Assembly (NCBI GenBank): GCA_050287085.1
Contig: JBNKBE010000020.1
Location: 1 to 64,000, forward strand
Direction: 5' to 3'
Source: Polyangiaceae bacterium
GTDB lineage: Bacteria; Myxococcota_A; Polyangia; Polyangiales; Polyangiaceae
DNA: 64,000 nt
Shown here: positions 1 through 63,049 of the stretch, in pieces
Layout of the letters: each line of letters starts with the position of its first letter
Numbering within the stretch: position 1 is the first letter of the stretch
Position numbers and translations under genes: made by a program
The notes under the pieces: model-generated
Database searches by the model: none
What the model saw: only the letters and a program-made list of their open reading frames with translations
What the model was told of the DNA's origin: nothing

Positions 1-582
1 AAAGCCCCCAAACAAGCGCGTGAAGACCGCACGCGGATCGTATTCGGCGTTGTTGCGCGCATTCGGTCCGTTGTGTGAAACCGTATGCAGCGAATCCTGA
101 GGACCGTTTAGCGTCGCCGGCGTCACCCCCACCTCGAGCGACTTGAACGGCGCCCCTTGCGAGACAATATCAGCCACAATTTGATCGATAGAGGCCGAGC
201 GGACGGCATTGCCGCTCAGAGGAGCCCCCGTCGTAGCCGCGGCGGAGCCGGACGGATGCTCAACGCCGGGCACAACCAACTTACCCTCCAGCCCAGATAT
301 GACCGTGAGGTAGTCCTTGACGGCCGCCAGCGGCGTTAGTTGATGGCTGAGCTCCCAGGAATCCCCCGTGCCCGTCACGCCCGGCTTCCATTGGCCCGGC
401 AGCACGCCGTTGCCAAAGAACCAGGAAACAAAGAGTGGAGAGATGGCGCTGCCATCCTGGGCAAGAGCGCTTCCATTGCTGTTGAGCATCGCCTCCAGCA
501 AGGGCAGCCCAACGGTCGCCGTGGCGCCTGTGGTCAAGAGGCCCCGGAGAACGGTTCGTCGATTCAGTGCTTTCATGGTCAT
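1..582 (-). CDS. DUF1552-type Tat-exported protein, partial (runs off the left edge of the window)
   Basis: Not in the ORF track. Manual minus-strand reading from ATG 582 (or 576) gives MTMKALNRRTVLRGLLTTGATATVGLPLLEAM...SWFFGNGV...VEHPSG...SIDQIVAD...FKSLEVGV...YDPRAVFTRLFG, collinear with the 2569-3924 protein. Confidence 0.85.
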   Translation of the reverse strand, partial: MTMKALNRRTVLRGLLTTGATATVGLPLLEAMLNSNGSALAQDGSAISPLFVSWFFGNGVLPGQWKPGVTGTGDSWELSHQLTPLAAVKDYLTVISGLEGKLVVPGVEHPSGSAAATTGAPLSGNAVRSASIDQIVADIVSQGAPFKSLEVGVTPATLNGPQDSLHTVSHNGPNARNNAEYDPRAVFTRLFGGF

Positions 583-2511: not shown

Positions 2512-2568
2512 GCTGGAACGCCAGACGAAGCTCTCGGTCCACACCCAGAAAGCTCCGTCCGGTTCAAC

Positions 2569-42257: not shown

Positions 42258-42329
42258 AGGCGCGTAGCTCAGTGGTAGAGCACTACATTGACACTGTAGG
42301 GGTCGGCAGTTCAATCCTGCCCGCGCCTA
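42258..42329 (+). tRNA. tRNA-Val(GAC), CCA not encoded
   Basis: Acceptor AGGCGCG/CGCGCCT, D-arm AGCTCAGTGGTAGAGC, anticodon arm CTACA-TTGACAC-TGTAG, T-loop GTTCAATC. Confidence 0.96.
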
Positions 42330-45249: not shown

Positions 45250-45502
45250 TCGACTCTCTTCACCTACTCAGCGTTTCGCCCGGGCCCTACCCGGCAACAA
45301 GCTGGCTTATGGCTGCTCTGGACCGCTGTCGTCAAGCATGGCCCGGCTTTTGGCATCACTGAACCCCTGACACAGTGCGGCATTGGTACCCTGGTCGGCA
45401 CTGGCCCGGCGTACAGATGTCAACAGGTCCCCTATTTTGAGAGGCCGCACAAAAAGCCTCGCGTTTTGGGGCGACGTTGGCTACACGTCGCCCCCTCACT
45501 CA

Positions 45503-45575
45503 GGGGCCGTAGCTCAGCTGGGAGAGCGCATGACTGGCAGTCATGAGGTCAGGGGTTCGATCCCCCTCGGCTCCA
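45503..45575 (+). tRNA. tRNA-Ala(GGC), CCA not encoded
   Basis: Acceptor GGGGCCG/CGGCTCC with G3-U70, anticodon arm CATGA-CTGGCAG-TCATG, T-loop GTTCGATC. Confidence 0.97.
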
Positions 45576-45580
45576 CAAGC

Positions 45581-45610
45581 AAAGACCAACCCAAATGGGT
45601 TGGTCTTTTT
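45581..45610 (+). terminator. Rho-independent terminator after tRNA-Ala
   Basis: AAAGACCAACCC-AAAT-GGGTTGGTCTTTTT. Confidence 0.85.
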
Positions 45611-45847
45611 GCTTCAACTGGTTTCGTTCGTGTGCGACGGGCTGACGGGCCCTTCACAGCCCTTCACACTCCATGGCGGGCATCGGCGAGAAGGCTAGCC
45701 GTCCGCCCTCGACAATGGAGTCGGCCCCCGCCCTGGCTCTTCACACTCCGTGGTAGGCATCGGCGATGGGGACGAACCCCGCGTGACAAGAGCCAGAGCC
45801 CAGTTTTCCTTTGTCTGCATTGCGAGGACTTTTCTAGACTTCGCGAC

Positions 45848-46939
45848 GTGATAGGAGGTTCAGATCCCGCGTTGGCGCCCGTAGTCGTCCTGGGGCACCA
45901 CGAACCTGACTACCCAAGGAATCAGGCGCTTCAGCGAGCGCTGACGGCTGCCGGCAGGCGGTTAATCGTATGTCACTCCAGGGCTACGTTCCCCTGGTGC
46001 CACCTGGTCTTGGCCACCAAACTGCTAAGGGCACCTCGGTCCGCCAAAGTGGTCCTGGTGACAGAAGGAGGACATCGCCTGGTCCCTTGGGTGAAACTGC
46101 TGTCTTGCTTAACAGGCCGCAGAGTACTATTTGACCCGTTCACCTCACGCTACAATACGCGCGTAGAGGACAGACAGTGGTTTGCCCCGGGCACTCTTCA
46201 AGCCCGAATTGCACACTTTCAAGACTGGTCCTCGACTCGCGCGGCCGATGCCCTGCTATTTGACACCGAAGAGCATAGGGAGTACTTCTTCTCCCGTTAC
46301 GGCCTTCGCTGCTCGAGCGCGATCGTTCCGGTAGGCGTTCCAGAAGACCTCTTCGTGCCAAGTAGCGTCAGTCGCGCGACTTCGAGAGACACCGAAGTGC
46401 TGTTCTACGGAACGTACATTCCCTTGCAGGGCATCGAGACTATCGTCGATGCGGCGGCGCTCGTTCGAGAAGAATCGTTTCGCTTCTCAATCCTAGGTGT
46501 GGGCCAGACCTTTGAAGGCATCAAGCAGCGAGTATCGACGCTGAACTTGGATCCGTCTCGCGTACAGCTGCTTCCCCCGGTACCGTTTTCAACGCTGCCG
46601 CAACGCTTGGAAGCCGCGGATATCGTGCTTGGCATCTTTGGAACGGGGACCAAAGCGTCCCGCGTCGTCCCCAACAAGGTCGTTCAGGCTGCAGCGCTCG
46701 GACGACCGATCATCACGGCTGACACGCCAGCTATTCGTCGATACTTTGCGCACTGCGAAAGCGCCTACCTGGTGCCGCCGGGTGTCCCCCATGAGCTCGC
46801 CCGGGCCCTTAGAGAACTGGCGCGAGACGAATCCTTGCGAGCGCGTATTGGGCTCGGTGCGCGCGCGGCTTTCGTCAAGCACTTCAGCCAATCCGTCGCG
46901 ACGCATACGCTAGCCGGGGTGCTTCAGCAGTTGGAGTGA
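45848..46939 (+). CDS. Glycosyltransferase family 4-like (GT-B)
   Basis: YPRN, VLFYGTYIPLQGIETI, GIFG, VVPNKV, ITADTPA. Start is GTG 45848 or TTG 45872; the upstream ORF extension overlaps the tRNA. Confidence 0.85.
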   Translation: MIGGSDPALAPVVVLGHHEPDYPRNQALQRALTAAGRRLIVCHSRATFPWCHLVLATKLLRAPRSAKVVLVTEGGHRLVPWVKLLSCLTGRRVLFDPFTSRYNTRVEDRQWFAPGTLQARIAHFQDWSSTRAADALLFDTEEHREYFFSRYGLRCSSAIVPVGVPEDLFVPSSVSRATSRDTEVLFYGTYIPLQGIETIVDAAALVREESFRFSILGVGQTFEGIKQRVSTLNLDPSRVQLLPPVPFSTLPQRLEAADIVLGIFGTGTKASRVVPNKVVQAAALGRPIITADTPAIRRYFAHCESAYLVPPGVPHELARALRELARDESLRARIGLGARAAFVKHFSQSVATHTLAGVLQQLE

Positions 46940-47618: not shown

Positions 47619-49013
47619 ATGACCCGGTCAGCGACCTATCTGGCGATCACCGCGCTTTCCGCATTCACAATACACTGCTCTTCCGGCGGTTCCGGAACGG
47701 CTCGCAACCCACGAGCCAAGCCCGAAGCGACCCCAGCAGCGGAAGCCACCCCAGCCGCGGCGCCGACCCCCAACAGCTGCGTCGACGCCGCATGTGCTTT
47801 CCCCGGTGCGGAAGGCTTCGGCACCGGTACACCGGGTGGGCGAGGTGGCCCCGTACTTGTCGTAACAACGCTAGCGTCAAGTGGCCCCGGCTCTCTGCGC
47901 GAGGCTCTATACACGAGCGGTCCACGGATCGTCGTATTTGCTGTCTCGGGGGTCATCGACCTGGATGGCGAGGACCTGGAACTCACGGAAGAACACTCCA
48001 ATCTAACCGTGCTCGGTCAGACCTCCCCTGGTGGGATCACCATCACGGGTTCAGCTACATTGCTGAGCTCCTACCACACAGGTCTGCACGACGTGGTCCT
48101 ACGGCATCTGCGGTTCCGAGGCCCATCAGGAGATACCATCAGCTTCGCCTACGTGCAGAACGTCGTCATCGATCATTGCGACTTCTCGGCGGGCACTGAC
48201 GAAACTCTCGATATCACCTCCTCGGAGAACGTCACCGTTCAGTGGAGCACGGTGACCAACAGTGTGGCTGGCGATGGCTCGCAGAACTACGGCTTTCTGC
48301 TCGCCTATCGCCCCACGACGAATATCACGTTGCATCACAACTTCCACGCGCACCATGGAGGACGTTGCCTTGCGAATGTGCACTGGGAGGGTGATGGGGA
48401 GCTGTCGGGACCCGCGCATATCGATGTTCGAAACAACGTGATCTACAACTGCGCCTTTGACGTCGCACTCTACATGAATGACGCCCCCGCATCCGGAATG
48501 GGGTGGAATTGGGTAGGCAACTATGGAAAGCCGGGCCCGAACTCACCATCATCGCTGGGGTTCGCGAACATCGCCACGGATCTCTACTCAGACGACAACG
48601 TCTACGAGGGCAGCGACCCCGCCGACGTCCCTTTCTTCCACTACGGCGCTTGGGATCCGGTGGGCGAGGCGTTCGACTTTCCCCCGGTGACCACCACGAG
48701 CGCGCCCCAAGCATTTGCCGACGTACTCGCCTACGTCGGCGCCTGGCCCCGCGACGCCATGAATGCCCGTACAGTTCTGGAGGCCCGTGACGGCACTGGA
48801 ACCCTGGGTCGCATTGATGATCCACTGTTCACTGGACCTGGCCCTATGCCACCGGCCGATGCCGACGCTGACGGTCTGCCCGACGGTTGGGAAGAAGCCG
48901 AAGGGCTCGATCCGATGGACAAGAACGACGCACAACAGCTCGATTCCGTCAGTGGCTACGCCCACATCGAGCGCTACGCAAACGAACTCGCGCAATCGCT
49001 CATCGGACTTTGA
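47619..49013 (+). CDS. Pectate-lyase-like (PL1-type) beta-helix lipoprotein
   Basis: AFPGAEGFG, GGRGG, SGPGSLREA, GQTSPGGI, VIDHC, HHN and C-terminal DADADGLPDGWE. Confidence 0.85.
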   Translation: MTRSATYLAITALSAFTIHCSSGGSGTARNPRAKPEATPAAEATPAAAPTPNSCVDAACAFPGAEGFGTGTPGGRGGPVLVVTTLASSGPGSLREALYTSGPRIVVFAVSGVIDLDGEDLELTEEHSNLTVLGQTSPGGITITGSATLLSSYHTGLHDVVLRHLRFRGPSGDTISFAYVQNVVIDHCDFSAGTDETLDITSSENVTVQWSTVTNSVAGDGSQNYGFLLAYRPTTNITLHHNFHAHHGGRCLANVHWEGDGELSGPAHIDVRNNVIYNCAFDVALYMNDAPASGMGWNWVGNYGKPGPNSPSSLGFANIATDLYSDDNVYEGSDPADVPFFHYGAWDPVGEAFDFPPVTTTSAPQAFADVLAYVGAWPRDAMNARTVLEARDGTGTLGRIDDPLFTGPGPMPPADADADGLPDGWEEAEGLDPMDKNDAQQLDSVSGYAHIERYANELAQSLIGL

Positions 49014-49053
49014 GGCCCCACTTTCATCGGCTCTTGCTGAAGACAGGAAAAGC

Positions 49054-50427
49054 ATGGACTTTCACCGCCCTACGCGCGTACTCGCCCTCGCCGCATCCCT
49101 GTTTGGCTCGATGGTGGCGCCTGCTCTCGCAGACGTAGTCGACGAACTTGAGCCGGGCCAGTGGTTGGAACTCCCCGGCACCCAACTCAATTCGGTCGCC
49201 CCGGCACCGCCACCGCCGGGCGTCCAAAGCGCAGCCGAGGGCGTTTTTGCCTACAGTGGAGCAGCGTGGGATGACGCACGTGAGCGCCTGCTGATCTGGG
49301 GCGGAGGCCACAGCGACTACGCCGGAAACGAAGTGTACGCTTTCGATATGGCCACCCTGAGCTGGACCCGCACCTGGGGCCCTACGCCGAACTCCGACAT
49401 CCCAGCTTGCGACAGCGGGTGCGAAAGCTACGACGACAACAATCCCGCGTCGCGACACACGTACGACGCACTCGTATACGTAGGTCTCTCAGCCTCAACC
49501 CCAATCGATGCGCTCTATTCGCTGGGAGGCTCACGCTATCAAAACGGCAATGGTAGTTCACAGGTCTGGCGCTTCGACTTTGGCGCCCTGTCCTGGCACA
49601 ACCTCGGTGAGTATCCCGGCTCGGACATGCTCGGCAACAACGCGGTCTTCGATCCGGTGAGCGGGCAGGTCATCCTGCGCAACAACACGCATATCGTACA
49701 ATACGATCCAGTCGCCGACTCTTGGACGGTGCGCTACACGCAGGACGGGATGTTTTGGGCGGGCGCTACGACAGCCGCACTCGATCCAGAACGCAACCTC
49801 ATCGTCTTTGTCGGCGGCATCGCAGGGGTCTCCACCTTCGATCTTGTAACGGGCGAATACGCGGTACGTCCTACACGTGGCGGCGATTCGTTTGTTCATG
49901 GGGTGGCGCCAGGCTTCGCCTATGACAGCGCCACTCGCAAGATGGTGGCATGGCACGGCGGCAGCGACGTCTACAGTCTCGACCTAGACACCTGGACCTG
50001 GGCCCAGCACTCGGCGAGCAGCGCGACCGTGCCAACAGCTCCAGCAGAACCTGGCACCTTCGGGCGCTTTCGTTACGCACCCTCCCGCAACGTGTTTGTA
50101 CTGGTCAACGCCGCCGATGAGAATGTGTTCGTCTATCGCCTCTCGGCGGGTGAAGGCATCGAAGCGAAACCAGGGTTCTCGCTCGACGGGGGCGTCACCA
50201 ACGTGGGCAAGAGCGGCGACGCGGGCACAACACTCGAAGAGGACACAGACCTCGTCCCCGAACAACACGCGCCCGGCGCGGCCGGCTGCAAATGCCACGT
50301 GAAACGGTCGTCCCCAGGCGCCGCAGAAGCATTCTTAGTTGGGCTCGCCCTCATCCTGGTGCAACGACGCCGCGAACGCTCCGTGAATGCGACACCCCGT
50401 GCGCCGCAGAACGCGCGGCGCACGTAG
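49054..50427 (+). CDS. Secreted Kelch-like beta-propeller protein with a MYXO-CTERM-type sorting signal
   Basis: Signal peptide (ALA-D), WGGGHSDYAGNEVYAFD, repeated (F/Y)D...W blades, and C-terminal GCKC...FLVGLALILVQRRR. Confidence 0.75.
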   Translation: MDFHRPTRVLALAASLFGSMVAPALADVVDELEPGQWLELPGTQLNSVAPAPPPPGVQSAAEGVFAYSGAAWDDARERLLIWGGGHSDYAGNEVYAFDMATLSWTRTWGPTPNSDIPACDSGCESYDDNNPASRHTYDALVYVGLSASTPIDALYSLGGSRYQNGNGSSQVWRFDFGALSWHNLGEYPGSDMLGNNAVFDPVSGQVILRNNTHIVQYDPVADSWTVRYTQDGMFWAGATTAALDPERNLIVFVGGIAGVSTFDLVTGEYAVRPTRGGDSFVHGVAPGFAYDSATRKMVAWHGGSDVYSLDLDTWTWAQHSASSATVPTAPAEPGTFGRFRYAPSRNVFVLVNAADENVFVYRLSAGEGIEAKPGFSLDGGVTNVGKSGDAGTTLEEDTDLVPEQHAPGAAGCKCHVKRSSPGAAEAFLVGLALILVQRRRERSVNATPRAPQNARRT

Positions 50428-50653
50428 CGCTCGCTTCATGCTCGCCCTCAGCAGCTCGCTGCGATAGCCGTCCATAGCTAAACACACCGCCGCAGCGGCC
50501 GCACGTTCCCACATGGTAGCGTGCAGCGTCGGCACACCCGCCCCTCGCCGTTCGACCTGAGCGGCCGAATTCCATTCGCAATCGGTCGCACCGTGCTGGA
50601 AAATCGCGGACGTCGACCTATACTGCTCATCTTCACGAGGGAGCAGGTAAGCA

Positions 50654-51388
50654 ATGAACGAGCTGTTGGCGACCAGTCTGGCATTTCCAACGGTTGTCTA
50701 CAGCGTGGCCCTCGGCGTGTGTCTGCTGTACTGGGCGCTGGTATTCTTGGGCGCGTTGGGTGTCGACTTGACCGGCGACGGGGACGCCGATGTCGACGCC
50801 ACAGATAGCACAGGATCGGCCCCGGCGGTTATGGGGCTCATTGGATTGAGTCACTTGGGCCAAGTCCCCATCACGGTGGCCTTCAGCCTGGTCTCCCTCT
50901 TCGGCTGGTTCGTCAGTGGCTTGCTAAGCCGTAGAGAGGCTCTACTCGGGGCGTTTGTCTCCGAATCCGTCCTACACATCCTTGTACTGTTGGTAGCCTT
51001 GCTCGTAGCCATACGCATTGCGGGGTGGGCCGCCCTTCCACTGGCTCCGCTGTTTGACGCCCACCACGCACCGTCGCGGCATAGCTTGGTTGGGCGTGTG
51101 GTCGAGGTCTCAACGGGCGAGGTCAATCGCCGCTTCGGTCAGGCACGCCTGGAGGACGGCGGCGCTGGACTGGTTCTGCAGGTCCGTTGTGACCCGAGTC
51201 GCGAACTACGGCGCGGTCAACAGGCGCTCATCATCGAACACAACGATGCGCTCGAATTCTACGAGGTCGAACCGATGGACGCACTGCTGCATGCAACCTC
51301 CAATGACCACCACCTCCCGAGTCTTTCAGCCCCCGAATCAACGGGGTTCAAACCAGGAAAGGCTACAACCCCAAATGAAGATACGTAG
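50654..51388 (+). CDS. YqiJ/NfeD-like membrane protein with an OB-fold (flotillin partner)
   Basis: FPTVVYS...YW TM, acidic loop, VPIT, further TMs, then LVGRVVEV...FGQARLEDGGAGLVLQVR. GAGGGAG RBS upstream. Confidence 0.8.
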   Translation: MNELLATSLAFPTVVYSVALGVCLLYWALVFLGALGVDLTGDGDADVDATDSTGSAPAVMGLIGLSHLGQVPITVAFSLVSLFGWFVSGLLSRREALLGAFVSESVLHILVLLVALLVAIRIAGWAALPLAPLFDAHHAPSRHSLVGRVVEVSTGEVNRRFGQARLEDGGAGLVLQVRCDPSRELRRGQQALIIEHNDALEFYEVEPMDALLHATSNDHHLPSLSAPESTGFKPGKATTPNEDT

Positions 51389-51469
51389 CCTGAGACGATA
51401 GGTGACTGAAGCGGAGTTCAAGACCCCGAGGCAGCTGTTGCGTGCAAAGAAGGACACGCAAGACGCGGA

Positions 51470-53722
51470 ATGCCGGTGAGCAATGACCACCGGTCATCGC
51501 AGAAAGTAGTACGGATCATGAGTGAAATAATGCAGGTGGACCTGCTCGGACTGGGAATCGCAGTAGGACTCATCTTCATCATCCTGGTCGGGTTGTTGAC
51601 CCTGGTTGCGCGCTTCTATCGCAAGGTGGACCAAGGGCGAGCCCTCATCGTGAACACGATGCGGCAGGAGCCGATTGTGACCTTCACTGGGCGCACGGTA
51701 TTTCCGATTATTCACCGTGCTGAAGAGATGGATATTTCGGTCAAGACGATCGAGATCGATCGTCGCGGAAAAGATGGCCTTATCTGCAAGGACAACATCC
51801 GAGCTGACATAAAGGTTACCTTCTTTGTCCGCGTCAACAAGACGACGGAAGATGTCATGAAGGTCGCGCAAGCCATTGGGTGCGCACGCGCCTCGGACCA
51901 AGACACATTGGAGACCATTTTCGTTGCGAAGTTCTCCGAAGGCCTGAAGACGGTAGGTAAGCGGCTTGAGTTCGAAGAACTCTATTCTAAGCGCGACGAA
52001 TTTCGCGACGCGATCATTGATGTGATCGGCAAAGACCTCAATGGGTTCATTCTCGACGACGCCGCGATCGACTATCTGGAACAGACGTCTCTTGCCGCGC
52101 TAGACCCGAGCAACATCCTGGACGCCCAGGGTATTCGCAAGATCACCGAGCTGACGGCAGCGCAGAACGTGCGCACCAACGATCTCAAACAGGAAGAGCG
52201 GAAGGCAATCCGCAAGAAGGACGTCGAGGCGGAGGAAGCGATCTTGGAACTGGACCGCCAAGCCGCAGACGCAGCAGCCAAGCAGCAACGAGAGATCGCT
52301 GTCATTGTGGCGCGTGAAGCGGCGGAGACCCTCCGGGTGCAAGCTGAGGAACGCAAGAAGGCCGAGCTCGCGCGCCTCAAACAGGAAGAGGACGTCCAGG
52401 TTCAAGAACAAAGCAAGTTGCGGCAAATCGAAATCGCCCAGAAAGGGAGAGAGAGAGTTGTCGCGGTGGAGAATGAGCGAGTGGAGAAAGACCGCGCGCT
52501 CGAAGCCATTGCTCGGGAACGTGAAGTCGAACTGCAGCGCATCGACAAGGAAAAGGCGCTCGAGGTTGAGCGCAAGGCGATCGCCGAGGTCGTCGCGGGT
52601 CGCGTCAGCGTCGAGAAAGGCGTGGCTGAAGAAGAAGAACGCATCAAGGACGTACGGGTGGTCGCAGACGCCAAACGCAAGAAAGAAGCAAAGGTGATCG
52701 GCGCCGAGGCAGAGGCGCAAGAGAAGCTCGTTGTTCAGATAAAGTCTGCTGAAGCCTCGGAGCAGGTCGCTCGCCACAAGGCCAAAGAGGAGTTGGTCAT
52801 CGCCGAGGCGAAACTTGAGGCATCCGATCGCCTGGCCCGTGCAAAGATCCGTGAAGCAGACGGCGCACAAGCCGAGTATGCAGCTCAAGGACTCGCCGCG
52901 GCCAAGGTCAAGGAGGCCGATGCCCTGGCTGTTGAAAAGCTTGGCTCAGCAGAGGCCCGCATCGCGCTGGAAAAGGCTCAAGCCGAAGCCAAGGGAGAAG
53001 AAGAAACCGGCATGGCGCGCATTCGCGTACGCGAAGCCGAGGCCCATGCGATCGAGCGACAAGGGGCTGCGGAAGCCACCGCCACCAAGGACATGCTGGT
53101 CGCCCAGGCCGCAGGCGAGGAGTCCAAGGGACTGGCCGCGGCCAAGATCAAAGAAGCGGACGCCGCAGCGACAGAAAAGCTCGCCGTTGCCGAGGCAGCA
53201 GGCATCAAGGAGCGTATGAGCGCGGAGGCCTCCGGCCTAAGCGAGAAAGCAAAGGCGCTCCAGGCACTGTCCGGCGAAGCGCGTGCCCACGAGGAATACC
53301 GACTGCAGCTCGAGCAGCAATTGCAGCTGGAAAAGGAGCGCCTCGCTGCGCGACGTGACATTGCATCCGACCAGGCCCAAGTGATGGCCACCGCGATGGG
53401 CCAAGCCAAGATCAATATCGTGGGCGGTGACGGCTCGTTTCTCAATCAATTCTTCAAAGCGGTAAGCCTGGGACAAGCGGTCGATGGTGCCGTCGGCAGT
53501 AGCGAACTGCTGACATCCGCGACGGACGACTACAAGAGCGGCGCAGCTAGCCTCCGGCAGGACGTCAAAGACGTTCTGAGCGGAGCTGCGCTCAACTCGG
53601 AGAGCCTGAAGAACCTATCTATCGTAGCCGCTCTCAACCACGTGATGCAGGCGTCTGGCCCTGAGCAGCAGTCGAAGCTGACTCAGCTTATCGAGCACGC
53701 CCGAAGCTTGGGGCTGAAGTAG
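51470..53722 (+). CDS. SPFH/flotillin (YqiK-like) protein with a long coiled coil
   Basis: N-terminal TM, GLICKDNIRADIKVTFFVRVN, AIDYLEQT, ILDAQGIRKIT and AEA-rich repeats. Alternative start at ATG 51518. Confidence 0.9.
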   Translation: MPVSNDHRSSQKVVRIMSEIMQVDLLGLGIAVGLIFIILVGLLTLVARFYRKVDQGRALIVNTMRQEPIVTFTGRTVFPIIHRAEEMDISVKTIEIDRRGKDGLICKDNIRADIKVTFFVRVNKTTEDVMKVAQAIGCARASDQDTLETIFVAKFSEGLKTVGKRLEFEELYSKRDEFRDAIIDVIGKDLNGFILDDAAIDYLEQTSLAALDPSNILDAQGIRKITELTAAQNVRTNDLKQEERKAIRKKDVEAEEAILELDRQAADAAAKQQREIAVIVAREAAETLRVQAEERKKAELARLKQEEDVQVQEQSKLRQIEIAQKGRERVVAVENERVEKDRALEAIAREREVELQRIDKEKALEVERKAIAEVVAGRVSVEKGVAEEEERIKDVRVVADAKRKKEAKVIGAEAEAQEKLVVQIKSAEASEQVARHKAKEELVIAEAKLEASDRLARAKIREADGAQAEYAAQGLAAAKVKEADALAVEKLGSAEARIALEKAQAEAKGEEETGMARIRVREAEAHAIERQGAAEATATKDMLVAQAAGEESKGLAAAKIKEADAAATEKLAVAEAAGIKERMSAEASGLSEKAKALQALSGEARAHEEYRLQLEQQLQLEKERLAARRDIASDQAQVMATAMGQAKINIVGGDGSFLNQFFKAVSLGQAVDGAVGSSELLTSATDDYKSGAASLRQDVKDVLSGAALNSESLKNLSIVAALNHVMQASGPEQQSKLTQLIEHARSLGLK

Positions 53723-53733
53723 CAGTAGGCCCG

Positions 53734-56700
53734 ATGTCTGCAGAACTAGACGCCTCTGAGCGCAGCGGTGGCAGCTACGAGGTCATCCGTGCCCGTTTGC
53801 TCAAGCACGCCGCTGTGCTCCGCGAACGCGCACAGAAGCTCAACACGGAGCGCAGTGAACGGTTCGGCGGTCAGGAGCTACGCGCGGTAAAAAACCTGCG
53901 CGTGCGCACCGAGAACAACTGCATTCCGTGCGACATCGCCCAAGTCCAAGGGCATCTGCTCTTTGGCTTCAATGTGTTCATGGGACTTAAGCCGGAAACG
54001 ACAGTGCCGGACGTCCTCACCCTGCACCATCTGGCAACAAGTGCCGAAGAAGTCGAACTTTCGCGCCTTTCCTCCGACTCCCCGAGCGCCGCGTTTTTGT
54101 CGGAGGGCGCGTTCGTCAATGAGTTCACGGAGCTGTATCGCTTCTACAAGGAAACGCGGCTCGCGCAGCTGGTACGACAAGAGAACAAGCTGCTAGCCAT
54201 CTTCCGAATTGGACAGCGAGCTGAGGACAAGCGCGTCTTTCGCTGGGCCCTAGGTAGCGACGGCGCAGCTACATACATCGACAATCGCGGTGAACGCGAC
54301 CATCTGCCCCCGCCCCAGCACGACTTCGAATGGACCCTGGCCACTCGCAACGACCAGGTTTCCGGACGACATCCCCATGTGTCGATTCTAGGTGAAGTCT
54401 TCGTGGAGACGGTGGGGGGAGATCTCACCATCAAGGTAGAAAACAACACGGAAAGCGGCGAAGGCATCCTTTCGGAGCCCGTGGCGGAGCCGCGTCAAAC
54501 CCTGGACGACGCAGAATACTCCTACGCCCGGCTGGGCGCTCTCATATTGCTGCGGATCCTTCCGTACAACGAGCAAAACCACCGCTACTTCGTCTTCGAC
54601 ATCCGTACGCGCAGGGTCGCTCGCATCGATGCTATCGGGCTGTCCTGTGTCCAACTACCGGAAGACCACGGCATCATCTTCCCTGGTGGCCATTTCCTTC
54701 CGGGCGGCGAAAGCAAAGTTTTCGACGGCGACTTTTCTGGGTTCACGTTCGAGCGCACGGTGCGTTCACCGAATGGCGAAGATGTACTCTACGTCTTTCA
54801 TCGAGTTGTGGACGGCGCGTACCGGCTTCTGTCTTACAATCTGATCCGAAAAGAACTGCAGACCCCGCTCTTGTGCCACGGCTACTCCCTCTTTGAGGAC
54901 GGCGCTATGGTCGTATTCAAGGCTGGTGACGAGCCCACCCGGGTGCATGTGTTGCAGCTCTGGAGCACCCCATTCGTGTCTGCCGAGCATGCGGCAAAGC
55001 AGCCCGAGGACCACAGCCCTCTCGGCCGCATCGGCAACGCGGAGCTCGTGCGTGGCATCTCCGACGTGCTGACGATAGTGCGGGATTCGGAGGCAGCGAG
55101 CACGCGCCAAGGCTTCGAAGATCTCGTCGCCGGCTGCGTGCGAGCCCTGGACGGCTACTATTGGCTGGGGCAGGAAGAGGTCTTCAATCTTGCAGCCGAA
55201 GTCAAGGCCGTTCGCGAAAGCGCTGAACGGGTCTTGGACGAGTTTGACAAGGTGGTCGAAGCGCGTCGCATAGCGAGCGAAGCCCTGGCACAAGCAAAGT
55301 CAGCTCAGGAAGCGTTGATAGCGTCACTTCGCTTGGACAGCTTCACAGGGGTGGCGCAGTTTATGAGTGCCCTTGCGGACCTTCGCCGCCAGCGTGGTCA
55401 CCTCATCTCCCTCAAGGAAACGCGCTACATCGACCTCGAAGCGCTCTCGAAGCTCGAGCGACAGGTAGTCCATGCCTTCGAAGCGACCGGTAGCGCGACG
55501 GCTCAGTTTCTGCTCCGTCCGGACGCTCTAGCACCCGTCGTGTCGAACTTGGAGGATATTCTCCAGCAGATCGAAACGGCGCAGAAGACACCCGTGCTGG
55601 TGCAGCAGTCCACACGACTCGAACGCGTCAGCGAGGGACTCAATGTGCTTTCCGACGTGGTTGCCAGCCTCCAAACGGATGACCCAACGGACCGTACACG
55701 GATCCTGCAGCATGTAAGCGAGGTGTTTGCTCATCTCAACCGGGTGCGTGCCACCGAGACAGCCCGCCGCAAAGAACTCATCACCGTGGAGGGCCAGGCC
55801 GAGTTCGGAGCCCAGTTCGCCCTGTTCGCACAAACGCTTGCAAGTGCACTGACTGCCGCCACCACCGTGTCCAGCTGCGACGACCAGCTGTCGCGATTGC
55901 TTGTGCAATTGGAAGAGCTCGAGGCCCGATTCTCCGAGTTTGACGACTTCGTGGTGCAACTGGCCGTGAAACGCGACGAGGTCTATGAGACCTTCACCCA
56001 GCGCCGCCAGTCGCTGCTCGACCGACAGCAGGCGCGCGGGCGGAGCCTCGAACAAGCCGCCGCTCGCATCGTCCAGAGCATCGCGAGACGCGCCGATTCG
56101 TTCAAGAATGCCAGTGACCTCAATGCCTATTTCGCCAGCGACGCGATGGTGCTCAAAGTTCACCAAATCGCGGAGCAACTCAAGGAGCTGGGCGACGCCA
56201 CGCGCAGCGACGAGGTGGAATCCAAACTGAAAACAGCGCGTCAGAACGCGCTCCGGGCCCTGCGCGACAAGAGCGAGCTGTTCGCCGCCGGTGAGAATGT
56301 TATTCAGCTGGGAGACCATCTATTCAACATCAACACTCAGGCTCTTGAGTTGACGCTCTTGCCTGAGGAGAAGCAGCTCGTGTTCTCACTCACGGGTACA
56401 GACTTCAGAGAGCCCGTCACGGACGCACGACTGACGGGTAGCGAGACGTTTTGGACGCAAAGCCTCGCGTCCGAGAATGCCACCGTTTATCGCGCCGAAT
56501 ACCTGGCCGCGAGCCTGCTATTTGCCGCCGAAGACGGAGCCCAGAAGCTCTCGCTTCAGGCGCTGCGCGATGCTCTGCGCGAAGAGCGGCTACTAACTCT
56601 GGTGCAGGCGTTCGCTGCAGACCGCTACTCCGAGGGCTACGAGCGGGGAGTGCACGACACTGACGCTGCCCGGATCCTAGAGCAATTGCTTCCCTTATAC

Positions 56701-58962
56701 GAGGCCTCACCCGCACTCCGCTTCACGTCTGTAGACCGGGCCCTGGCAGGTGCCTGGTGGTGGCTTCACGGGCAGACCGACTTCGGTCAACGACTGCTGC
56801 GGCAAGCGCGAAGTTTCAAGCGCATGCATGAACACTTGGGAGGCCACTGGGCGGGCACAGAGTTGGAAGCGGAACTGACTTGCGTGCTGCAGAACGACCT
56901 CAAGCAGGCGGGGTTCACTTTGCAGGGCGGACTGCAGGGCAACTTGAGCGACGCCGCCCGCTTCTTGATTGGGCAGCTGGGCAAGGAACGCTTCGAGCTG
57001 GACACCGCGCGCGCCGCTGCGGAGCTCGCAACCGGGCTACGACAAGAACTGGAACGCCGGAGCGCCCGCCGCGAACTGGAGCAGGAGCTAGCGGCCTTGG
57101 AAAAGGCACCAGCCCAGGCGCTCGAGCTCGCGACACATTGGTGCGCGCAGTTTGCAACGGCACACGCCCCAAGCCAGCGCGAGTTTGCTAGCGAAGCCGG
57201 GCTACTCCTCCTTTCTGAACGACAGGTGCCACGCTCCGTGACCAGCGCGCGCGTGGATACGACGGTCGCCGACCTGCTCGGCTCTCACCCGCGGATCATC
57301 GACCGCCAGCTAAACCTCCGATTGGACGAATTTCTAGCACGGCTGGGGCGCTTCGCGAAGGAGACGGTGCCGGCCTACAACACCTACCGCGCGCTGCGAC
57401 AAGTGCTGATTGAGGAGAAGCGACACCAGCTGCGCCTGGAAGAGTTCAAGCCGCGAGTGCTTTCGTCCTTCGTGCGCAACCGGCTGGTGAGCGAGGTCTA
57501 TCTCCCGCTCATTGGCGCAAACTTCGCCAAACAGCTCGGTGCTGCGGGCGCCAAGAAGCGCACCGATCTGATGGGGCTACTCCTACTCATCTCGCCCCCC
57601 GGCTACGGAAAAACCACTTTGATGGAATACGTGGCAAATAGACTTGGCCTCGTTTTCGTCAAGGTCAACGGCCCGGCCCTGGGCCATTCGGTCTTGTCGC
57701 TGGACCCATCAGAGGCGCCCAACAAGACTGCCCAGCAAGAAGTCGAAAAGCTGAACTTCGCGCTCGAGCTTGGCAACAATGTAATGCTGTATCTTGACGA
57801 CATTCAGCACACCAACCCTGAGTTTCTGCAGAAGTTCATTTCGCTATGCGACGCTCAGCGCCGGATCGAAGGCGTTTGGAAGGGTCGGACGCGCACGTAC
57901 GACCTGCGTGGCAAGAAGTTCTGCGTCGTCATGGCAGGAAACCCATACACCGAGTCCGGAGAGAAGTTCCAAATCCCCGACATGCTCTCAAACCGCGCAG
58001 ACACCTACAACTTGGGCGACGTACTGGCAGGAAGGGACGATGTGTTTGCGCTGAGCTACCTGGAAAATGCCCTCACCTCCAACCCGGTACTCGCACCACT
58101 CTCGCTTCGGTCACCGCGCGACGTACACACCTTTCTGCGCATGGCTAGCGATCCGGTCGGACAAGAGCTCCCCGCTTTGGAACATGCCTATTCGGCAGCA
58201 GAGTCAGATGACATCACCCGGACGTTTCGTCTGCTCATGGCCGTGCAGCGTATCGTATTGCGAATAAACATGGAGTATATCGCCTCCGCGTCCATGGACG
58301 ATTCGTTCCGAACGGAGCCGGCTTTCAAGCTGCAAGGAAGCTACCGTAACATGGCCAAGCTGGCCGAAAAGGTGGCTCCAGCCATGAACGACGCAGAACT
58401 GCAGGCGCTGCTCGACGACCACTATACGTCAGAAGCACAAACGCTCACAACGGGCGCAGAGCACAACCTGCTGAAGCTGGCGGAGCTACGGGGGCGTCTC
58501 ACACCGGAGCAGACGCAGCGTTGGGAGGACATCAAGAGAAGCTATCAACGCGAGCGTGCACTAGGAGGGCAAGGAGCGGACTCAGCGACGCGTCTGATAG
58601 GGCAGTTGGGACAGGTCGGCGAACAGATCGCAGGGATTCGCGAGGTGATTGCACTCAGTGGCAAGCGTGAGCAGCCACCCTGGGTGGCCGCGCATATGCA
58701 GCGGCTAGAGTCCGCCATCGAGCAGCTGAGGGGCGCGCGCTTCGATATCTTGGTCAAGAACGAGCCGCCGCCGGGGATCGGTGAGCTATTAACCCAGCAG
58801 GTTGATATCCTCGAGAAGACACTGGTACCCTTTCTGCGCGTCGCAACGGAGCGACTCGACGATAGTCTCGAGTTGCGCAAGCGTCTGGACACGTTCATCG
58901 CGGAGCTGAGAACGGTGGACGGGCTACTGCGCAGGCAATCGGATCTCGGGCCCAAGACGTGA
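53734..58962 (+). CDS. 1742-aa AAA+ ATPase (DUF3686/'DNA repair ATPase'-type)
   Basis: N-terminal beta-rich domain (GRHPHVSI, VETVGGDLTIKVENNT, LPEDHGIIFPGG), coiled coil, Walker A SPPGYGKTT, Walker B MLYLDD, VMAGNPY, NRAD, FKLQGSYRNM. Confidence 0.9.
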   Translation: MSAELDASERSGGSYEVIRARLLKHAAVLRERAQKLNTERSERFGGQELRAVKNLRVRTENNCIPCDIAQVQGHLLFGFNVFMGLKPETTVPDVLTLHHLATSAEEVELSRLSSDSPSAAFLSEGAFVNEFTELYRFYKETRLAQLVRQENKLLAIFRIGQRAEDKRVFRWALGSDGAATYIDNRGERDHLPPPQHDFEWTLATRNDQVSGRHPHVSILGEVFVETVGGDLTIKVENNTESGEGILSEPVAEPRQTLDDAEYSYARLGALILLRILPYNEQNHRYFVFDIRTRRVARIDAIGLSCVQLPEDHGIIFPGGHFLPGGESKVFDGDFSGFTFERTVRSPNGEDVLYVFHRVVDGAYRLLSYNLIRKELQTPLLCHGYSLFEDGAMVVFKAGDEPTRVHVLQLWSTPFVSAEHAAKQPEDHSPLGRIGNAELVRGISDVLTIVRDSEAASTRQGFEDLVAGCVRALDGYYWLGQEEVFNLAAEVKAVRESAERVLDEFDKVVEARRIASEALAQAKSAQEALIASLRLDSFTGVAQFMSALADLRRQRGHLISLKETRYIDLEALSKLERQVVHAFEATGSATAQFLLRPDALAPVVSNLEDILQQIETAQKTPVLVQQSTRLERVSEGLNVLSDVVASLQTDDPTDRTRILQHVSEVFAHLNRVRATETARRKELITVEGQAEFGAQFALFAQTLASALTAATTVSSCDDQLSRLLVQLEELEARFSEFDDFVVQLAVKRDEVYETFTQRRQSLLDRQQARGRSLEQAAARIVQSIARRADSFKNASDLNAYFASDAMVLKVHQIAEQLKELGDATRSDEVESKLKTARQNALRALRDKSELFAAGENVIQLGDHLFNINTQALELTLLPEEKQLVFSLTGTDFREPVTDARLTGSETFWTQSLASENATVYRAEYLAASLLFAAEDGAQKLSLQALRDALREERLLTLVQAFAADRYSEGYERGVHDTDAARILEQLLPLYEASPALRFTSVDRALAGAWWWLHGQTDFGQRLLRQARSFKRMHEHLGGHWAGTELEAELTCVLQNDLKQAGFTLQGGLQGNLSDAARFLIGQLGKERFELDTARAAAELATGLRQELERRSARRELEQELAALEKAPAQALELATHWCAQFATAHAPSQREFASEAGLLLLSERQVPRSVTSARVDTTVADLLGSHPRIIDRQLNLRLDEFLARLGRFAKETVPAYNTYRALRQVLIEEKRHQLRLEEFKPRVLSSFVRNRLVSEVYLPLIGANFAKQLGAAGAKKRTDLMGLLLLISPPGYGKTTLMEYVANRLGLVFVKVNGPALGHSVLSLDPSEAPNKTAQQEVEKLNFALELGNNVMLYLDDIQHTNPEFLQKFISLCDAQRRIEGVWKGRTRTYDLRGKKFCVVMAGNPYTESGEKFQIPDMLSNRADTYNLGDVLAGRDDVFALSYLENALTSNPVLAPLSLRSPRDVHTFLRMASDPVGQELPALEHAYSAAESDDITRTFRLLMAVQRIVLRINMEYIASASMDDSFRTEPAFKLQGSYRNMAKLAEKVAPAMNDAELQALLDDHYTSEAQTLTTGAEHNLLKLAELRGRLTPEQTQRWEDIKRSYQRERALGGQGADSATRLIGQLGQVGEQIAGIREVIALSGKREQPPWVAAHMQRLESAIEQLRGARFDILVKNEPPPGIGELLTQQVDILEKTLVPFLRVATERLDDSLELRKRLDTFIAELRTVDGLLRRQSDLGPKT

Positions 58963-59171
58963 CCCACCTCGAGACGCGCACAGACATAACCTGTCCGGCC
59001 TGCGGTCATTCCGAGACCGAAGATATGCCCCTTGAGTATTGCCTGGTGCGCTACACCTGCGCGCACTGTGGGGAGCTGCTGCGCCCGCTCGCGGGCGACT
59101 GCTGTGTCTTCTGCTCCTACGCCAACAGGCCGTGTCCACCGATACAACTATCAGGCAAGACCTGCTGCTGA
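58959..59171 (+). CDS. GDCCVxC-domain small Cys-rich protein
   Basis: ITCPACG...MP...C...CAHCG...GDCCVFCSY...CPPIQ...CC. GTGA overlap with the ATPase stop. Confidence 0.85.
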   Translation: MTHLETRTDITCPACGHSETEDMPLEYCLVRYTCAHCGELLRPLAGDCCVFCSYANRPCPPIQLSGKTCC

Positions 59172-59205: not shown

Positions 59206-60768
59206 CTAGACGCCGCCCCAAACTCCGTCGACGGGAGCGGCGCCGTTCTTGTTGAACACCTCGTCCTGCAACTTGGACAGCGGATCCGCCCCCAGGAAGG
59301 GCTGCGCCGCCGTCAGCCAAATACTGTTGTGATGCCCATCGACTCGCTGGAAACCGCCGGGCTTCATCCCCAGCTTGGAGCCGCCAATGATGAGGGCCGA
59401 AGCGCCGTTGCGGTCGTGAGAGGGGTTGCCCACCTCGCTGACCATCGTGATGACGGTGCGATCCAACAAGCTCGCGCCGTCAGTCGCTAGCGGATCGGGC
59501 GTGGAGAGGAAGTCGTTAACGAACTTCGCCGTGTTTTCGAAGTACCAACGCTGAACGCTGACCATCGCATCCCAGATGTAGGCATTGTTGCCAGGACGCG
59601 CACCCTGATAGAAAGACGAGTCCAGGTTGCGGTGGCTGAGTGGGTGATGCATCCAGATGCGGTTCGGATCGTTCGGATCTGCACCCTTGAACGATACGTG
59701 ATTGGTACCGGGTGACCATTCGAAAGTGCCGACGCGGATGATGTCACACGCCATCGCCGAACGGATGATGCTCGCGTGAGCGGCGCCCACCTCCGCGTGC
59801 AGCGGAGCGTCGTCGGCACGAGCCTCAGGGTTACGGTAGTCACTGTTCGCATCCGAGTTGGCGCCCGTCAGGTTCGACTGCGGCAGCAAGGGCGCTTCAC
59901 ATACCGCGGCTTCCGGCGGGTTGTTGATCTGCTCCGAAAGCTGCATCTCCAACTTGCGAATTACGTCCGCATGAGCGTCGATCTTGGAGCGCTCGTTGGC
60001 CGGAGCCAGCGCCGACAGACGAGCCAGTTCACGCTGCGAATGGTCCAGCACGCTCTTGCGTTGCTTGAGCAAGCGCAACGCGTCCACGTCCGTCATCGCC
60101 CCTCCCGCCTGGAAGTCGCTGAACAAGTCGTTGTAAGCCGTTACGGGACTCAACGTCGGGCGCAGCGGCTCGTTCTCCATGATCTGCCCACCGGGCACCG
60201 CCGCCTGAATCGACTGCTTGCGGTAGCCGTAGGATAGGCAACGCGTGGACGTCTCGTAGGAGTCGACGCGCGAGTCGCAGATGACGTTGTAGTAGTCACG
60301 ACCGCCGCTCTTGAGATCCTCGACGTGGTTGAGGAGGATCTGATCCCAAGAGGGGCCACCCGCGCAGCCATCGTCGGTTTCACCACCGTTGGCACGCGTT
60401 CCAGGACCGTTGGCGCCGGTCGTCGAAAACGGGGTTCCGGCTTCGTGAGCGCCGCCACCAGGACATTGCATGCCATTCATGTTGAAGCCCAACATGATGT
60501 GGGTGTGGGGCTTCAGCTCCGGCGTAGCAAAAGGAGCAATGATGTAGCCCGCGCCGCCGTGGGTATCCGATACGGTGTAGTCAGCCCCGGTACCGGTTGG
60601 AACGAAGGCTTGTTGGATCGACCCACAGGGCCAACTGACCATCAGAAAACGCGGCGGCGAACCCGCGCCCTGGGCGGAGGCCTCCATATTGCGAAGGATA
60701 GCACCGTAACCAACGGCTCCGCCGACGGCGGCGAGAAATGAGCGTCGCGCAACTCGATAAGACTTCAT
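59206..60768 (-). CDS. DUF1552-type Tat-exported protein
   Basis: VARRSFLAAVGG signal, GAHEAG, SWDQIL, KSVLD, CDIIRV, HHPLSH, SLLDRT. Confidence 0.85.
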   Translation of the reverse strand: MKSYRVARRSFLAAVGGAVGYGAILRNMEASAQGAGSPPRFLMVSWPCGSIQQAFVPTGTGADYTVSDTHGGAGYIIAPFATPELKPHTHIMLGFNMNGMQCPGGGAHEAGTPFSTTGANGPGTRANGGETDDGCAGGPSWDQILLNHVEDLKSGGRDYYNVICDSRVDSYETSTRCLSYGYRKQSIQAAVPGGQIMENEPLRPTLSPVTAYNDLFSDFQAGGAMTDVDALRLLKQRKSVLDHSQRELARLSALAPANERSKIDAHADVIRKLEMQLSEQINNPPEAAVCEAPLLPQSNLTGANSDANSDYRNPEARADDAPLHAEVGAAHASIIRSAMACDIIRVGTFEWSPGTNHVSFKGADPNDPNRIWMHHPLSHRNLDSSFYQGARPGNNAYIWDAMVSVQRWYFENTAKFVNDFLSTPDPLATDGASLLDRTVITMVSEVGNPSHDRNGASALIIGGSKLGMKPGGFQRVDGHHNSIWLTAAQPFLGADPLSKLQDEVFNKNGAAPVDGVWGGV

Positions 60769-60773
60769 GGTTT

Positions 60774-62651
60774 TCAATTTCCTGGCGTGCGGATGGAAAG
60801 GGTATCCGAGGCAACAATCTCGGCAACAAGAGCACTGAAGCTCTTTTCCGGGAGCGCCTCGAAGGCGTTGGTGACCGCGCGAACCGCGCAGCTATTGGTG
60901 GGATGGTCCGGTTGTTCGGCGCGGGCGCTGCCTTGGCCTTCGTCAGCTAGCGCGTAGTTGATGAAGTTCATCGTCATGCACCGGGTGAGCGCGTTCGTCC
61001 CCCACGTGGGCTCCATCCGCAGCAACGCTTCGGCAAACTGCTCGGGTGTGCTCACCGTCGCGCGATCGGGAACCTGATCCCCATCCTGGTCGTAGCTGAA
61101 GGCCGTTGGCAACTTGGCCACCGTCCAGTTGGCGTCGATGGGATTGCCGTCCTTATCCGCGGTGCGATAACGTCCCACCGCATCGTAGTTCTCCAACACC
61201 ATGCCCATCGCGTCGAACTGCCCATGGCAGCCAGCACAGACCGTGCCTCGCATCGGATCCGCACGGAAGTCCGCCTTCTCCTTCTCGGTCCAGCCTTCTT
61301 GATCCGCAATCACACCCAGAATGGCAGGGTCGGTGGGCGGCGGCGGATTTTGGGAGCAAACCAGAGCTGCGTTTAGCGCAAGCCCGCGTCCCACAACCGA
61401 CGTACCGTTGGGACGAGACTTTGACGTGAGGAACGCCGCCAGGGTGAGCAAGCCGGAACGCCCTTCGGGCAGCTCCACCTCGGTAAACGTATTCTGGTCG
61501 TCCGTGGGTGCGTCGATGCCATACACGTCGTTGGCCAGCATGTTGTTTACCCAGCCCCGCCGCGTGGTGATGAGATCCCCGAGCGACCCTTCCCACAACA
61601 CGTGGGAGAGGAACTCCTGAGCTTCTCGATACATCGAGTTCTTCAGGCCGGAAGTCACCTCAAAGCCAGGGGTGGCATCCTCGTCCAGAACGATGCCCGG
61701 AACGGTGGTCAACTGGAAGTAGCCCGTCATAGCCGCTTCTAGATTGGCCTTGGCCTCGGGGGTCGCTAGCAAGCGCATCGCATGAGCTCGCAGTGTGTTC
61801 TTGTCAGACAGCTGCCCCGCGTCCGCCGCAGCTCGAAGCTCAGCATCCGGCGGGCCGTCGGTGAGGAAGTACGAAACCTCGCTAGCGATTTCGTGTTGGC
61901 TCAAGCTGCCCTGAATTTCGAAGCCATCACCGATTTCCGTACGGTACAAGAACCCCGGCGAAAGCAAGACCGCGTCGTAGCCGAATTGAACGGCCTCCGC
62001 GACGCTGCCCCCGTTGGTCTCCGTGAGCTCCGTCCACAGGGTCTGATATGAAGTCTTCTCCTCCTCAGACAAGGGACGTCGGTAAGCCTCCGTGGCAAAC
62101 GACAAGACCTTCTCTAGACCACAACCTGCGTCACACGCAGCTTCACCTTCAAACTCGCTCGCGACCAGCGTCATGGCACCGCGCGCGGCGCGATCCCGCA
62201 GGTCAAACTCGCTTTGGCCGAGGGTGGTACCCAACGTGGCCAGCGGCGGGAATGCGCGCAACGTCGCATCTACAACGTCCTCGCCTGCAAACAACTCGGC
62301 CGCTGCCTCGCCGAAGAGGGCCATGTAGGTATTGACCAACTGGTTGTCGGTCAACTTCACGACACGCTTTTGGGTCGTGACCTGATTGCCCACACACTCC
62401 CCCTCGGGAGGAGGAGGCAACACCATGCCACCACCGTTGCTCGTCCCGGCCGAATTCCCGGCGGCGCCACCGGCTCCGGCCATATCCCCACCGCCACCGG
62501 CTGTTGCGCTTCCAGCGCTGCCCGCCTGCGAACCGGCCATATCGGGGGGGTTGGCGTCGCCAGAACAGGCCGCCAAGGAGCTTGCCCCGAGCACCACGAG
62601 CGCAGCGCTCAGGGGTGTCATGAATCTAAATTTTAGCTGTCGCTTCGTCAT
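60774..62651 (-). CDS. DUF1592/DUF1588-type monoheme c-cytochrome-like lipoprotein
   Basis: SLAAC lipobox, Gly stalk, AYRRPL, SPGFLYRTE, SYFLTDGPPD, SVVGRG, CAGCH. The start could be 62666, 62651 or 62621. Confidence 0.85.
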   Translation of the reverse strand: MTKRQLKFRFMTPLSAALVVLGASSLAACSGDANPPDMAGSQAGSAGSATAGGGGDMAGAGGAAGNSAGTSNGGGMVLPPPPEGECVGNQVTTQKRVVKLTDNQLVNTYMALFGEAAAELFAGEDVVDATLRAFPPLATLGTTLGQSEFDLRDRAARGAMTLVASEFEGEAACDAGCGLEKVLSFATEAYRRPLSEEEKTSYQTLWTELTETNGGSVAEAVQFGYDAVLLSPGFLYRTEIGDGFEIQGSLSQHEIASEVSYFLTDGPPDAELRAAADAGQLSDKNTLRAHAMRLLATPEAKANLEAAMTGYFQLTTVPGIVLDEDATPGFEVTSGLKNSMYREAQEFLSHVLWEGSLGDLITTRRGWVNNMLANDVYGIDAPTDDQNTFTEVELPEGRSGLLTLAAFLTSKSRPNGTSVVGRGLALNAALVCSQNPPPPTDPAILGVIADQEGWTEKEKADFRADPMRGTVCAGCHGQFDAMGMVLENYDAVGRYRTADKDGNPIDANWTVAKLPTAFSYDQDGDQVPDRATVSTPEQFAEALLRMEPTWGTNALTRCMTMNFINYALADEGQGSARAEQPDHPTNSCAVRAVTNAFEALPEKSFSALVAEIVASDTLSIRTPGN

Positions 62652-63049
62652 CGACTTCCTCGCCAAGGAGTTTAGAGCGAGAGCTCGGTTGTCGAGCGCT
62701 CTGGATGGTGCGCAGCGCGTTGGATGCGCCGAACATGCTTCTCAATCGTGATAACTACCCCTTCCGAAGGCAGAAATTCACTGAGTTCTCCACTGACAAG
62801 AGGGCGCTGCTAGCCATGGTGACATTATCCGTCATAGCGACAATTTGAAGAGGGCGATTGTGCGCTATCGTCCAGGAAGGAACCCCCGGACAACGATTTG
62901 AGGACACCACGAGAAACCAGCGTCTGGACTCCGGGCGGCAAAGAACAGGGTCCGCGCGCGCAGCTCGTCCGCGGTATCCACCCGGGCTGGGCAATTTCGA
63001 CGGGGCAGGTTCGCGGGTACACAGCTCGTCCGCCCAATGCCCGTCGCCC

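Follow-up and report, generated by a model that had tools for sequence, protein, structure and literature searches.

Here we have analysed a 64,000-nucleotide stretch of Polyangiaceae DNA (assembly GCA_050287085.1, contig JBNKBE010000020.1, positions 1 to 64,000; hereafter the window) and find that it carries, from position 50,654 onward, a real but ordinary copy of an already described three-gene unit, encoding a YqiJ/YuaF-type membrane protein, a flotillin-type SPFH protein and a giant DUF3686 AAA+ ATPase, followed by a fourth, Cys-rich gene that is a local passenger outside the conserved unit. Because of the linkage and genome-presence counts given below, the flotillin emerges as the constant partner of the ATPase, and PspA as a protein that need not be linked yet is seldom absent from the genome. 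We think it probable that the ATPase forms a ring, attaches to the flotillin cage by propeller-tipped arms and, under envelope stress, spends ATP on opening or remodelling that cage or on drawing clients out of it. The locus and its parts are laid out as follows:

50654-51388, + strand: gene 1, YqiJ/YuaF (short NfeD)-type membrane protein, 244 amino acids (aa)
51470-53722, + strand: gene 2, flotillin-type SPFH protein, 750-aa open reading frame (ORF)
51623-52126, + strand: Band_7 domain of the flotillin (44.4 bits, over the cut-off in the genome hmmsearch)
52154-52888, + strand: proximal helical segment of the flotillin, invariant at 245 residues
52889-53248, + strand: repeat segment of the flotillin with variable length, 119 aa here and 39-159 aa in homologues
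53734-58962, + strand: gene 3, DUF3686 giant AAA+ ATPase, 1742 aa
53881-54966, + strand: beta-propeller of the ATPase, residues ~50-411 (AlphaFold2 (AF2) model, predicted local distance difference test (pLDDT) 90)
55252-56283, + strand: predicted length-fixed arm, residues ~507-850, built of about four three-helix repeats of spectrin type
57427-58497, + strand: single AAA+ module, residues ~1232-1588, with Walker A, DD Walker B, sensor-1 Asn and Arg finger
58959-59171, + strand: gene 4, GDCCVxC-domain Cys-rich protein, 70 aa, GTG start

The pairing of ATPase and flotillin carries most of the argument. Adjacency was counted on those 67 of 80 related loci in which 400 nt or more precede an ATPase with an intact start, and the flotillin adjoins the ATPase in 64 of them; three of the 13 loci left out for truncation or by the threshold also show it. 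In an even sample of 201 genomes from the organism's own phylum, DUF3686 occurs in 37, the flotillin subtype (defined as at least 50% identity in the SPFH part) in 36 and both in 35, the exceptions being two assemblies in fragments and a flotillin that contains an internal stop (G099, where an ATPase match is absent). The tie between ATPase and SPFH gene on which the first-pass annotation had staked its reading thus holds across genomes, adjacent in most loci and paired in 35 of 37 ATPase genomes, and it outlasts the loss of linkage, since the flotillin subtype is present elsewhere in each of the four genomes tested in which the ATPase is not linked to it. Outside the phylum, the ATPase family is found in 8/201 genomes of a Bacteroidota sample and 20/121 of a Planctomycetota sample, as well as in records of Streptomyces, Deinococcus, Vibrio, Proteus and Pseudomonas and in 13 plasmid-collection records, several of them chromosome-sized; its occurrence in Actinomycetota and Gammaproteobacteria is documented by plasmid-collection records and metagenome loci. 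DUF3686 is found in 0/14 model genomes. The samples overlap (for example, L013 is G043 and L042 is G168), and kin among them are not independent.

The gene 1 protein has three hydrophobic segments (~4-41, 71-92 and 95-134) and an OB-like C-terminal part; of 54 loci with enough upstream DNA, 53 have its gene ahead of the flotillin. It has no Pfam match itself, YqiJ_N is matched by 20 of its 56 aligned homologues (E<=0.01), and its profile matches the B. subtilis YuaF structure 2k14 (E 0.009). For the flotillin, homologues suggest a start at ~51518-51530 rather than 51470 (segment numbering here is counted from 51497), and a single N-terminal transmembrane (TM) helix at residues 19-53 is followed by Band_7, a long Ala/Glu/Lys-rich helical region and a conserved C-terminal cap. 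Its anticipated Band_7 domain was recovered by hmmsearch over the genome, though hmmscan missed it, and is matched by 11 of 69 homologues; Pfam Flot (PF15975) matches neither the protein nor these 69 aligned homologues, and its Atlas neighbours are named flotillin/Band 7 (score 0.98). A PDB search with the flotillin profile returned only QmcA (E 0.007), on low-complexity helix, which we do not count as evidence.

The flotillin obeys length rules. Stretch 220-465 measures 245 residues in 69/69 rows of one alignment and 131/132 of a larger one, and stretch 584-663 measures 79 residues in 130 of 132 sequences; the stretch between them, 465-584, takes 21 different lengths over the 132 sequences, from 39 to 159 residues. 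All 12 differences smaller than 60 from the shortest form are sums of 7 and 11, numbers whose sums cover half of all integers up to 60. The pattern would fit one continuous helix that lengthens in register, and at ~420-430 aa the helical region is far longer than the 22-nm-high human flotillin cage needs (PMC11260169); its ~420 helical residues could span up to ~60 nm.

The gene 3 protein matches DUF3686 (E 1e-192), DUF7902 and AAA/AAA_5 in Pfam, has no TM segment and is encoded once in the genome. Its catalytic motifs are where they had first been read (SPPGYGKTT at residue 1287, MLYLDD at 1351, MAGN at 1400 and NRAD at 1420), but the Asp-for-Glu Walker B is not peculiar to this copy: across 74 diverse full-length homologues, D1355 is kept in 73 and D1356 in all 74, and the Walker A Lys, sensor-1 Asn and Arg finger are conserved as highly. 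Likewise, the single AAA module of the original description stands, but its long coiled coil does not, as this part models as tandem three-helix bundles. In the model, the propeller is set into a four-helix bundle (helix 14-44 plus helices 435-508, with bundle matches spanning 3..508), and its Foldseek matches are WD40 propellers such as DCAF1 (TM-target ~0.4). The arm beyond it is of fixed size, with segments 593-761 and 761-845 identical in length in 132/132 sequences, and independent of the flotillin variable segment; over 68 pairs, the length of that segment shows no correlation with arm or tail, and its correlation with small propeller-loop length differences (rho 0.47-0.49) we read as a lineage effect. 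The AAA+ module finds its closest fold matches in CbbQ, NorQ, midasin (Mdn1) and dynein, and its model contains a pre-sensor-1 hairpin, an Arg finger before strand 5 and a helix 2 interrupted by a conserved loop (model 467-480) in which DSSP does not assign a hairpin. By closest fold and pre-sensor-1 hairpin, the modelled ATPase appears to belong with the MoxR/midasin-type AAA+ modules. It is not a Vps4 or classic AAA protein in the sense of having Vps4/spastin as closest fold and no pre-sensor-1 hairpin, so the earlier label of Vps4-like does not survive as a statement of family. No VWA domain was found in the ATPase by Pfam or in the models, and a single-seed phmmer search, of limited reach, found one VWA ORF besides the seed among loci L001-L142. 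A PDB sequence search with the ATPase profile matched only Walker A stretches. The ATPase ORF is split in assemblies L010 and L047, by frameshift or sequencing error.

PspA behaves differently from the flotillin. As first noted, the window contains no pspA; the genome's only two PspA genes lie on other contigs, C9 and C15, with neither linked to the operon. On C9, a CesT_Tir_1 gene is followed by a classical PspA (L084:6047-7305) beside an apparent tRNA gene. Linkage proves optional across the neighbourhood survey: PspA is present in 35 of 36 sampled own-phylum ATPase genomes and near the ATPase in 0/36 (153/201 genomes of that sample have PspA), linked upstream in 7/8 of the Bacteroidota sample and, among 52 Pseudomonas-like loci retrieved with the P. 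aeruginosa protein (many of them close kin), linked in 47. The 20 ATPase genomes of the Planctomycetota sample show one clear linkage and one weak case downstream, and four of them, all incomplete genomes, have no PspA match. Among the first 80 loci, PspA lies upstream in none, a divergent PspA directly downstream in seven and a CesT-PspA pair ~4 kb away in one. The proposed independence from PspA therefore stands for linkage and not for the genome, as PspA is still encoded elsewhere here and in 35 of 36 genomes. The C9 PspA is only 23-30% identical to the operon-linked PspAs and scores only 49 and 76 bits with their profiles; in a tree that left out long rows it groups apart from them, a split with SH-aLRT 97 under LG+G4, with a long-branch warning, that is not resolved under a mixture model. 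Operon-type PspA is thus apparently absent from this genome.

Several other PspA neighbourhoods were seen. An ortholog of the CesT_Tir_1-PspA pair lies ~4 kb from the triad in L051, on the opposite strand, and on contig C15 (L085:5998-11225) a two-component pair is co-directional with a signal-peptide VWA gene, a short, divergent gene resembling pspA and a gene for a membrane protein. At L037:12411-14984 (also L038, L039, L044, L047 and L048), all of Acidobacteriota-type genomes, the ATPase is followed by a divergent PspA-like gene and a second AAA ATPase of 570-620 aa; a downstream PspA also occurs in L036. Contig C89 of G484 (L107, L117) has two tandem PspA genes upstream of the triad and a third downstream. 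On the Pseudomonas megaplasmid pQBR103 (L086:1-11714), the triad stands behind rhomboid, DUF2491, DUF350, DUF1190 and glutathionylspermidine-synthase genes, a neighbourhood that joins two PspA-type neighbourhoods of Ravi et al. (PMC11237479); a pspA gene, if there is one, would be outside the stretch covered.

The form found here is not new. Ravi et al. (2024; PMC11237479) describe a full operon and PspA-less 'abbreviated' forms with the same three genes in the same order and no CesT/Tir-PspA dyad (supplement row ANH61663.1), and they suggest that PspA encoded elsewhere serves the latter, as it is encoded in this genome. A three-TM YqiJ/YuaF gene, an SPFH gene and a propeller-DUF3686 ATPase, the three features of the abbreviated operon or bacCDE core, are all present here, with no difference in gene content from the abbreviated operons as given in that paper, and no CesT/DUF2170 or PspA gene of the full bac operon is linked at this locus. 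Earlier weight placed on a pspA-less form as a novelty is accordingly lost. The additions made here are the co-retention after the operon split, the apparent absence of operon-type PspA and the length rules; in the accessible text of PMC11237479 the arm is described as a coiled coil, the ATPase is not assigned to the MoxR clade, and co-occurrence and length analyses are absent.

The best-studied counterpart is the P. aeruginosa bac operon, bacABCDEF (PA3732-PA3727, PA14_16140-16200; PMC2587700, PMC10948618, PMC13086221). Genes 1, 2 and 3 are the counterparts of BacC, BacD/PaFlo3 and BacE/PA3728, respectively. Aligned over 1744 columns, the ATPase has 48% identity with P0273, a P. aeruginosa protein of 1746 aa in a cluster of 3,222 members. 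The locus of P0273 encodes, in this order, DUF2170, PspA, a 213-aa protein, a 688-aa flotillin, the ATPase and PLD, which is how the six bac genes are arranged; the locus was matched to bac by synteny rather than by locus tags. Compared with bac, the window has no linked bacA, bacB or bacF, a longer flotillin and no sigma-54-like site in the upstream gap. The bac genes are co-transcribed and increase together in a bacA mutant, with BacE up 8.9-fold (Wallart 2024, PMC10948618), and the PspA-like gene gives biofilm defects (Mace 2008, PMC2587700). PA3728 is listed as 'ATPase' in PMC8190622, and the accessible text of a 2026 flotillin study makes no mention of the ATPase (PMC13086221). We found no experimental test of the ATPase in the literature, a search whose scope did not extend to subscription papers, preprint supplements or the Wallart supplements. 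Further afield, E. coli yqiJ-yqiK and B. subtilis yuaF-floT likewise place a short NfeD-type gene before a flotillin; both genomes are without DUF3686, and the flotillin subtype here is distinct, other own-phylum flotillins being 25-32% identical. With the MoxR-clade remodellers (CbbQ, NorQ, RavA, midasin/Rea1 and dynein) the ATPase shares the AAA fold, for which they are its best structural matches, the pre-sensor-1 hairpin and interrupted helix 2 seen in the model, and the Arg finger before strand 5, and it differs from them in that no VWA was found and in its fused 1200-residue propeller-and-arm N-terminus, DD Walker B and single module.

In the mechanism we favour, the flotillin, anchored by its one TM helix and accompanied by the YqiJ/YuaF-type partner, would build a tall, cytoplasm-facing SPFH cage, as inferred for this subtype from solved SPFH structures. 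The ATPase would form a soluble MoxR/midasin-clade ring, presumably a hexamer. Its adaptor would be built in, as a beta-propeller borne by a spectrin-like arm of fixed length, where other members of the clade usually rely on a separate VWA partner. By contacting the cage and hydrolysing ATP the ring could open or remodel it or pull clients out, serving membrane and protein upkeep during what would be envelope stress, with PspA as a frequent but exchangeable associate rather than a constant partner. The direct basis is gene content, family assignments, predicted folds, co-occurrence and length constraints, and the proposal is supported by the nearly invariant catalytic motifs and by fold matches to the protein-remodelling CbbQ, NorQ and Mdn1. 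An SPFH cage with an AAA+ enzyme has a precedent in HflK/C-FtsH, which, like the human flotillin-1/2 cages, has a long helical wall and a C-terminal cap (PMC11260169); unlike FtsH, the ATPase here is a soluble protein lacking a protease domain. Should the arm act as a ruler at all, it would be for the fixed part of the cage wall, although rigid folds also resist insertions and deletions. A more specific version, possible but held only tentatively, is a VWA-free motor dedicated to the SPFH cage, in which six propeller-tipped arms of fixed length grip the length-fixed 245-residue wall of an unusually tall, telescoping cage (at most ~60 nm if straight) and open, recycle or unload it by ATP, without PspA; if true, this would be the first soluble machine known to remodel an SPFH cage and a handle on how cages open.

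Several observations weigh against this proposal. Thirteen other own-phylum genomes have more distant flotillins (25-32% identity) without the ATPase, and DUF3686 is absent from E. coli and B. subtilis; such cages therefore do not need the motor. Deletion of the P. aeruginosa flotillin reduces biofilm by ~20%, with no growth, motility or peroxide phenotype (PMC13086221). Flotillin-ATPase covariation, scored as mutual information over 132 pairs (effective number of sequences 78) and under-powered, does not rise above that of a mis-paired control (top z 7.5 vs 7.3). Hydrolysis could be slow or regulated, given the DD Walker B. PspA is also commoner in ATPase genomes (36/37) than in the rest (117/164), a comparison confounded by kinship and genome size. 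In an alternative that we regard as unlikely, the ATPase is a functional Vps4 stand-in that disassembles PspA (ESCRT-III-like) polymers, with the flotillin cage as a dock and, here, the C9 CesT-PspA pair as substrate. It would explain why full operons hold CesT/DUF2170-PspA upstream in most Pseudomonas-like and Bacteroidota loci, the retention of PspA in all but one of the own-phylum ATPase genomes counted above and the CesT_Tir_1-PspA pair of this genome, as Ravi et al. predicted (PMC11237479), and bacteria are described in a review as without a Vps4-like regulator of PspA (PMC7619361). It sits poorly with the distance of the C9 PspA from the operon-linked group, with the missing PspA match in G103 as in the four Planctomycetota genomes (all incomplete), and with the downstream PspA, which is of a different clade with its own AAA gene.

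A quite improbable reading makes the ATPase mainly a nucleotide-switched scaffold or coat of propeller and helical rod that hydrolyses little and shapes or tethers the cage without mechanical work. The invariant DD Walker B agrees with it, and the top Foldseek rows for the N-terminal half are propeller-plus-helix coat proteins (IFT-A, nucleoporins), at TM-scores of only 0.06-0.17; but these matches reflect merely a propeller followed by helices, and the other catalytic residues are as conserved as the DD pair, which occurs in active AAA+ enzymes such as DnaA. There is little probability, too, that the unit is an anti-phage membrane sensor or defence system, as had been floated at first. MoxR-clade ATPases do drive predicted conflict systems in multicellular bacteria (PMC7159879), the distribution is patchy (37/201, 8/201 and 20/121 genomes) and the plasmid-collection records could be cited in favour. 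PADLOC returned only P-loop or zinc-ribbon noise on the four genes (E>=0.0036), and 5 of 76 flanking ORFs match its models, all generic folds (MotB, AAA, UvrD, mad2, PLD) counted without a background set; the ATPase has no match among 50,697 phage records and only a 19-residue P-loop match in IMG/VR. Further against defence are the lack of an effector domain or VWA, the fixed gene content, a GC content like the surroundings, one copy per genome and the size of the P. aeruginosa cluster. The DNA-repair ATPase of the Pfam and NCBI names is highly improbable: Foldseek ranks MCM and RuvB high for the C-terminal half and there are, separately, weak RuvB hits, and beyond names and such matches nothing was found in its favour, in agreement with the first-pass view of that label.

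The remaining features of the window surround this unit. All four ORFs had been read correctly as co-directional on the + strand, with 11 nt between flotillin and ATPase, a GTGA overlap into gene 4 and a 226-nt gap before gene 1; taking all four as one system did not hold, as no homologue of gene 4 occurs in any of the 80 related loci. Gene 4 matches NF041374 (GDCCVxC) at 90.5 bits against a cut-off of 40 and is perhaps metal-related; the family occurs in 1/36 ATPase-bearing genomes, there on other contigs and fused to MerC (L221:1483-2067, within repetitive DNA; twice in G064). GC content is ~0.60 in the locus and the same in the remaining window, and the closest named relatives are Myxococcota, at no more than 56% identity. 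The 226-nt gap holds no sigma-54-like motif (window-wide, 63 matches vs 72 expected) and a single sigma-70-like site (9/12, at 50597-50624), near chance. Upstream, 47619-50427 encodes two proteins, one a secreted beta-helix protein resembling pectate lyase and the other a Kelch-propeller protein that ends in a C-terminal Cys/TM sorting-like tail; neither gene is conserved beside the operon. Two separate sets of DUF1592-family (PSD/PSCyt) and DUF1552 (HXXSHH) genes lie at 611-5753 and 59206-62666. A tRNA-Val lies at 42258-42330, and a 518-aa ORF at 45383-46939 crosses a tRNA-Ala (45503-45576), so that the true glycosyltransferase start must lie further down.

This locus is not special in itself, being one copy of a described operon, and phenotypes of the best-studied counterpart are weak. 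By what means a closed SPFH cage is opened, loaded or recycled is an open question, and a flotillin subtype that retains a single, specific soluble ATPase in several phyla, whether or not the genes are linked, offers a simple system for ATP-driven cage remodelling. The proposed role would also correct the 'DNA repair ATPase' label now carried by thousands of proteins.

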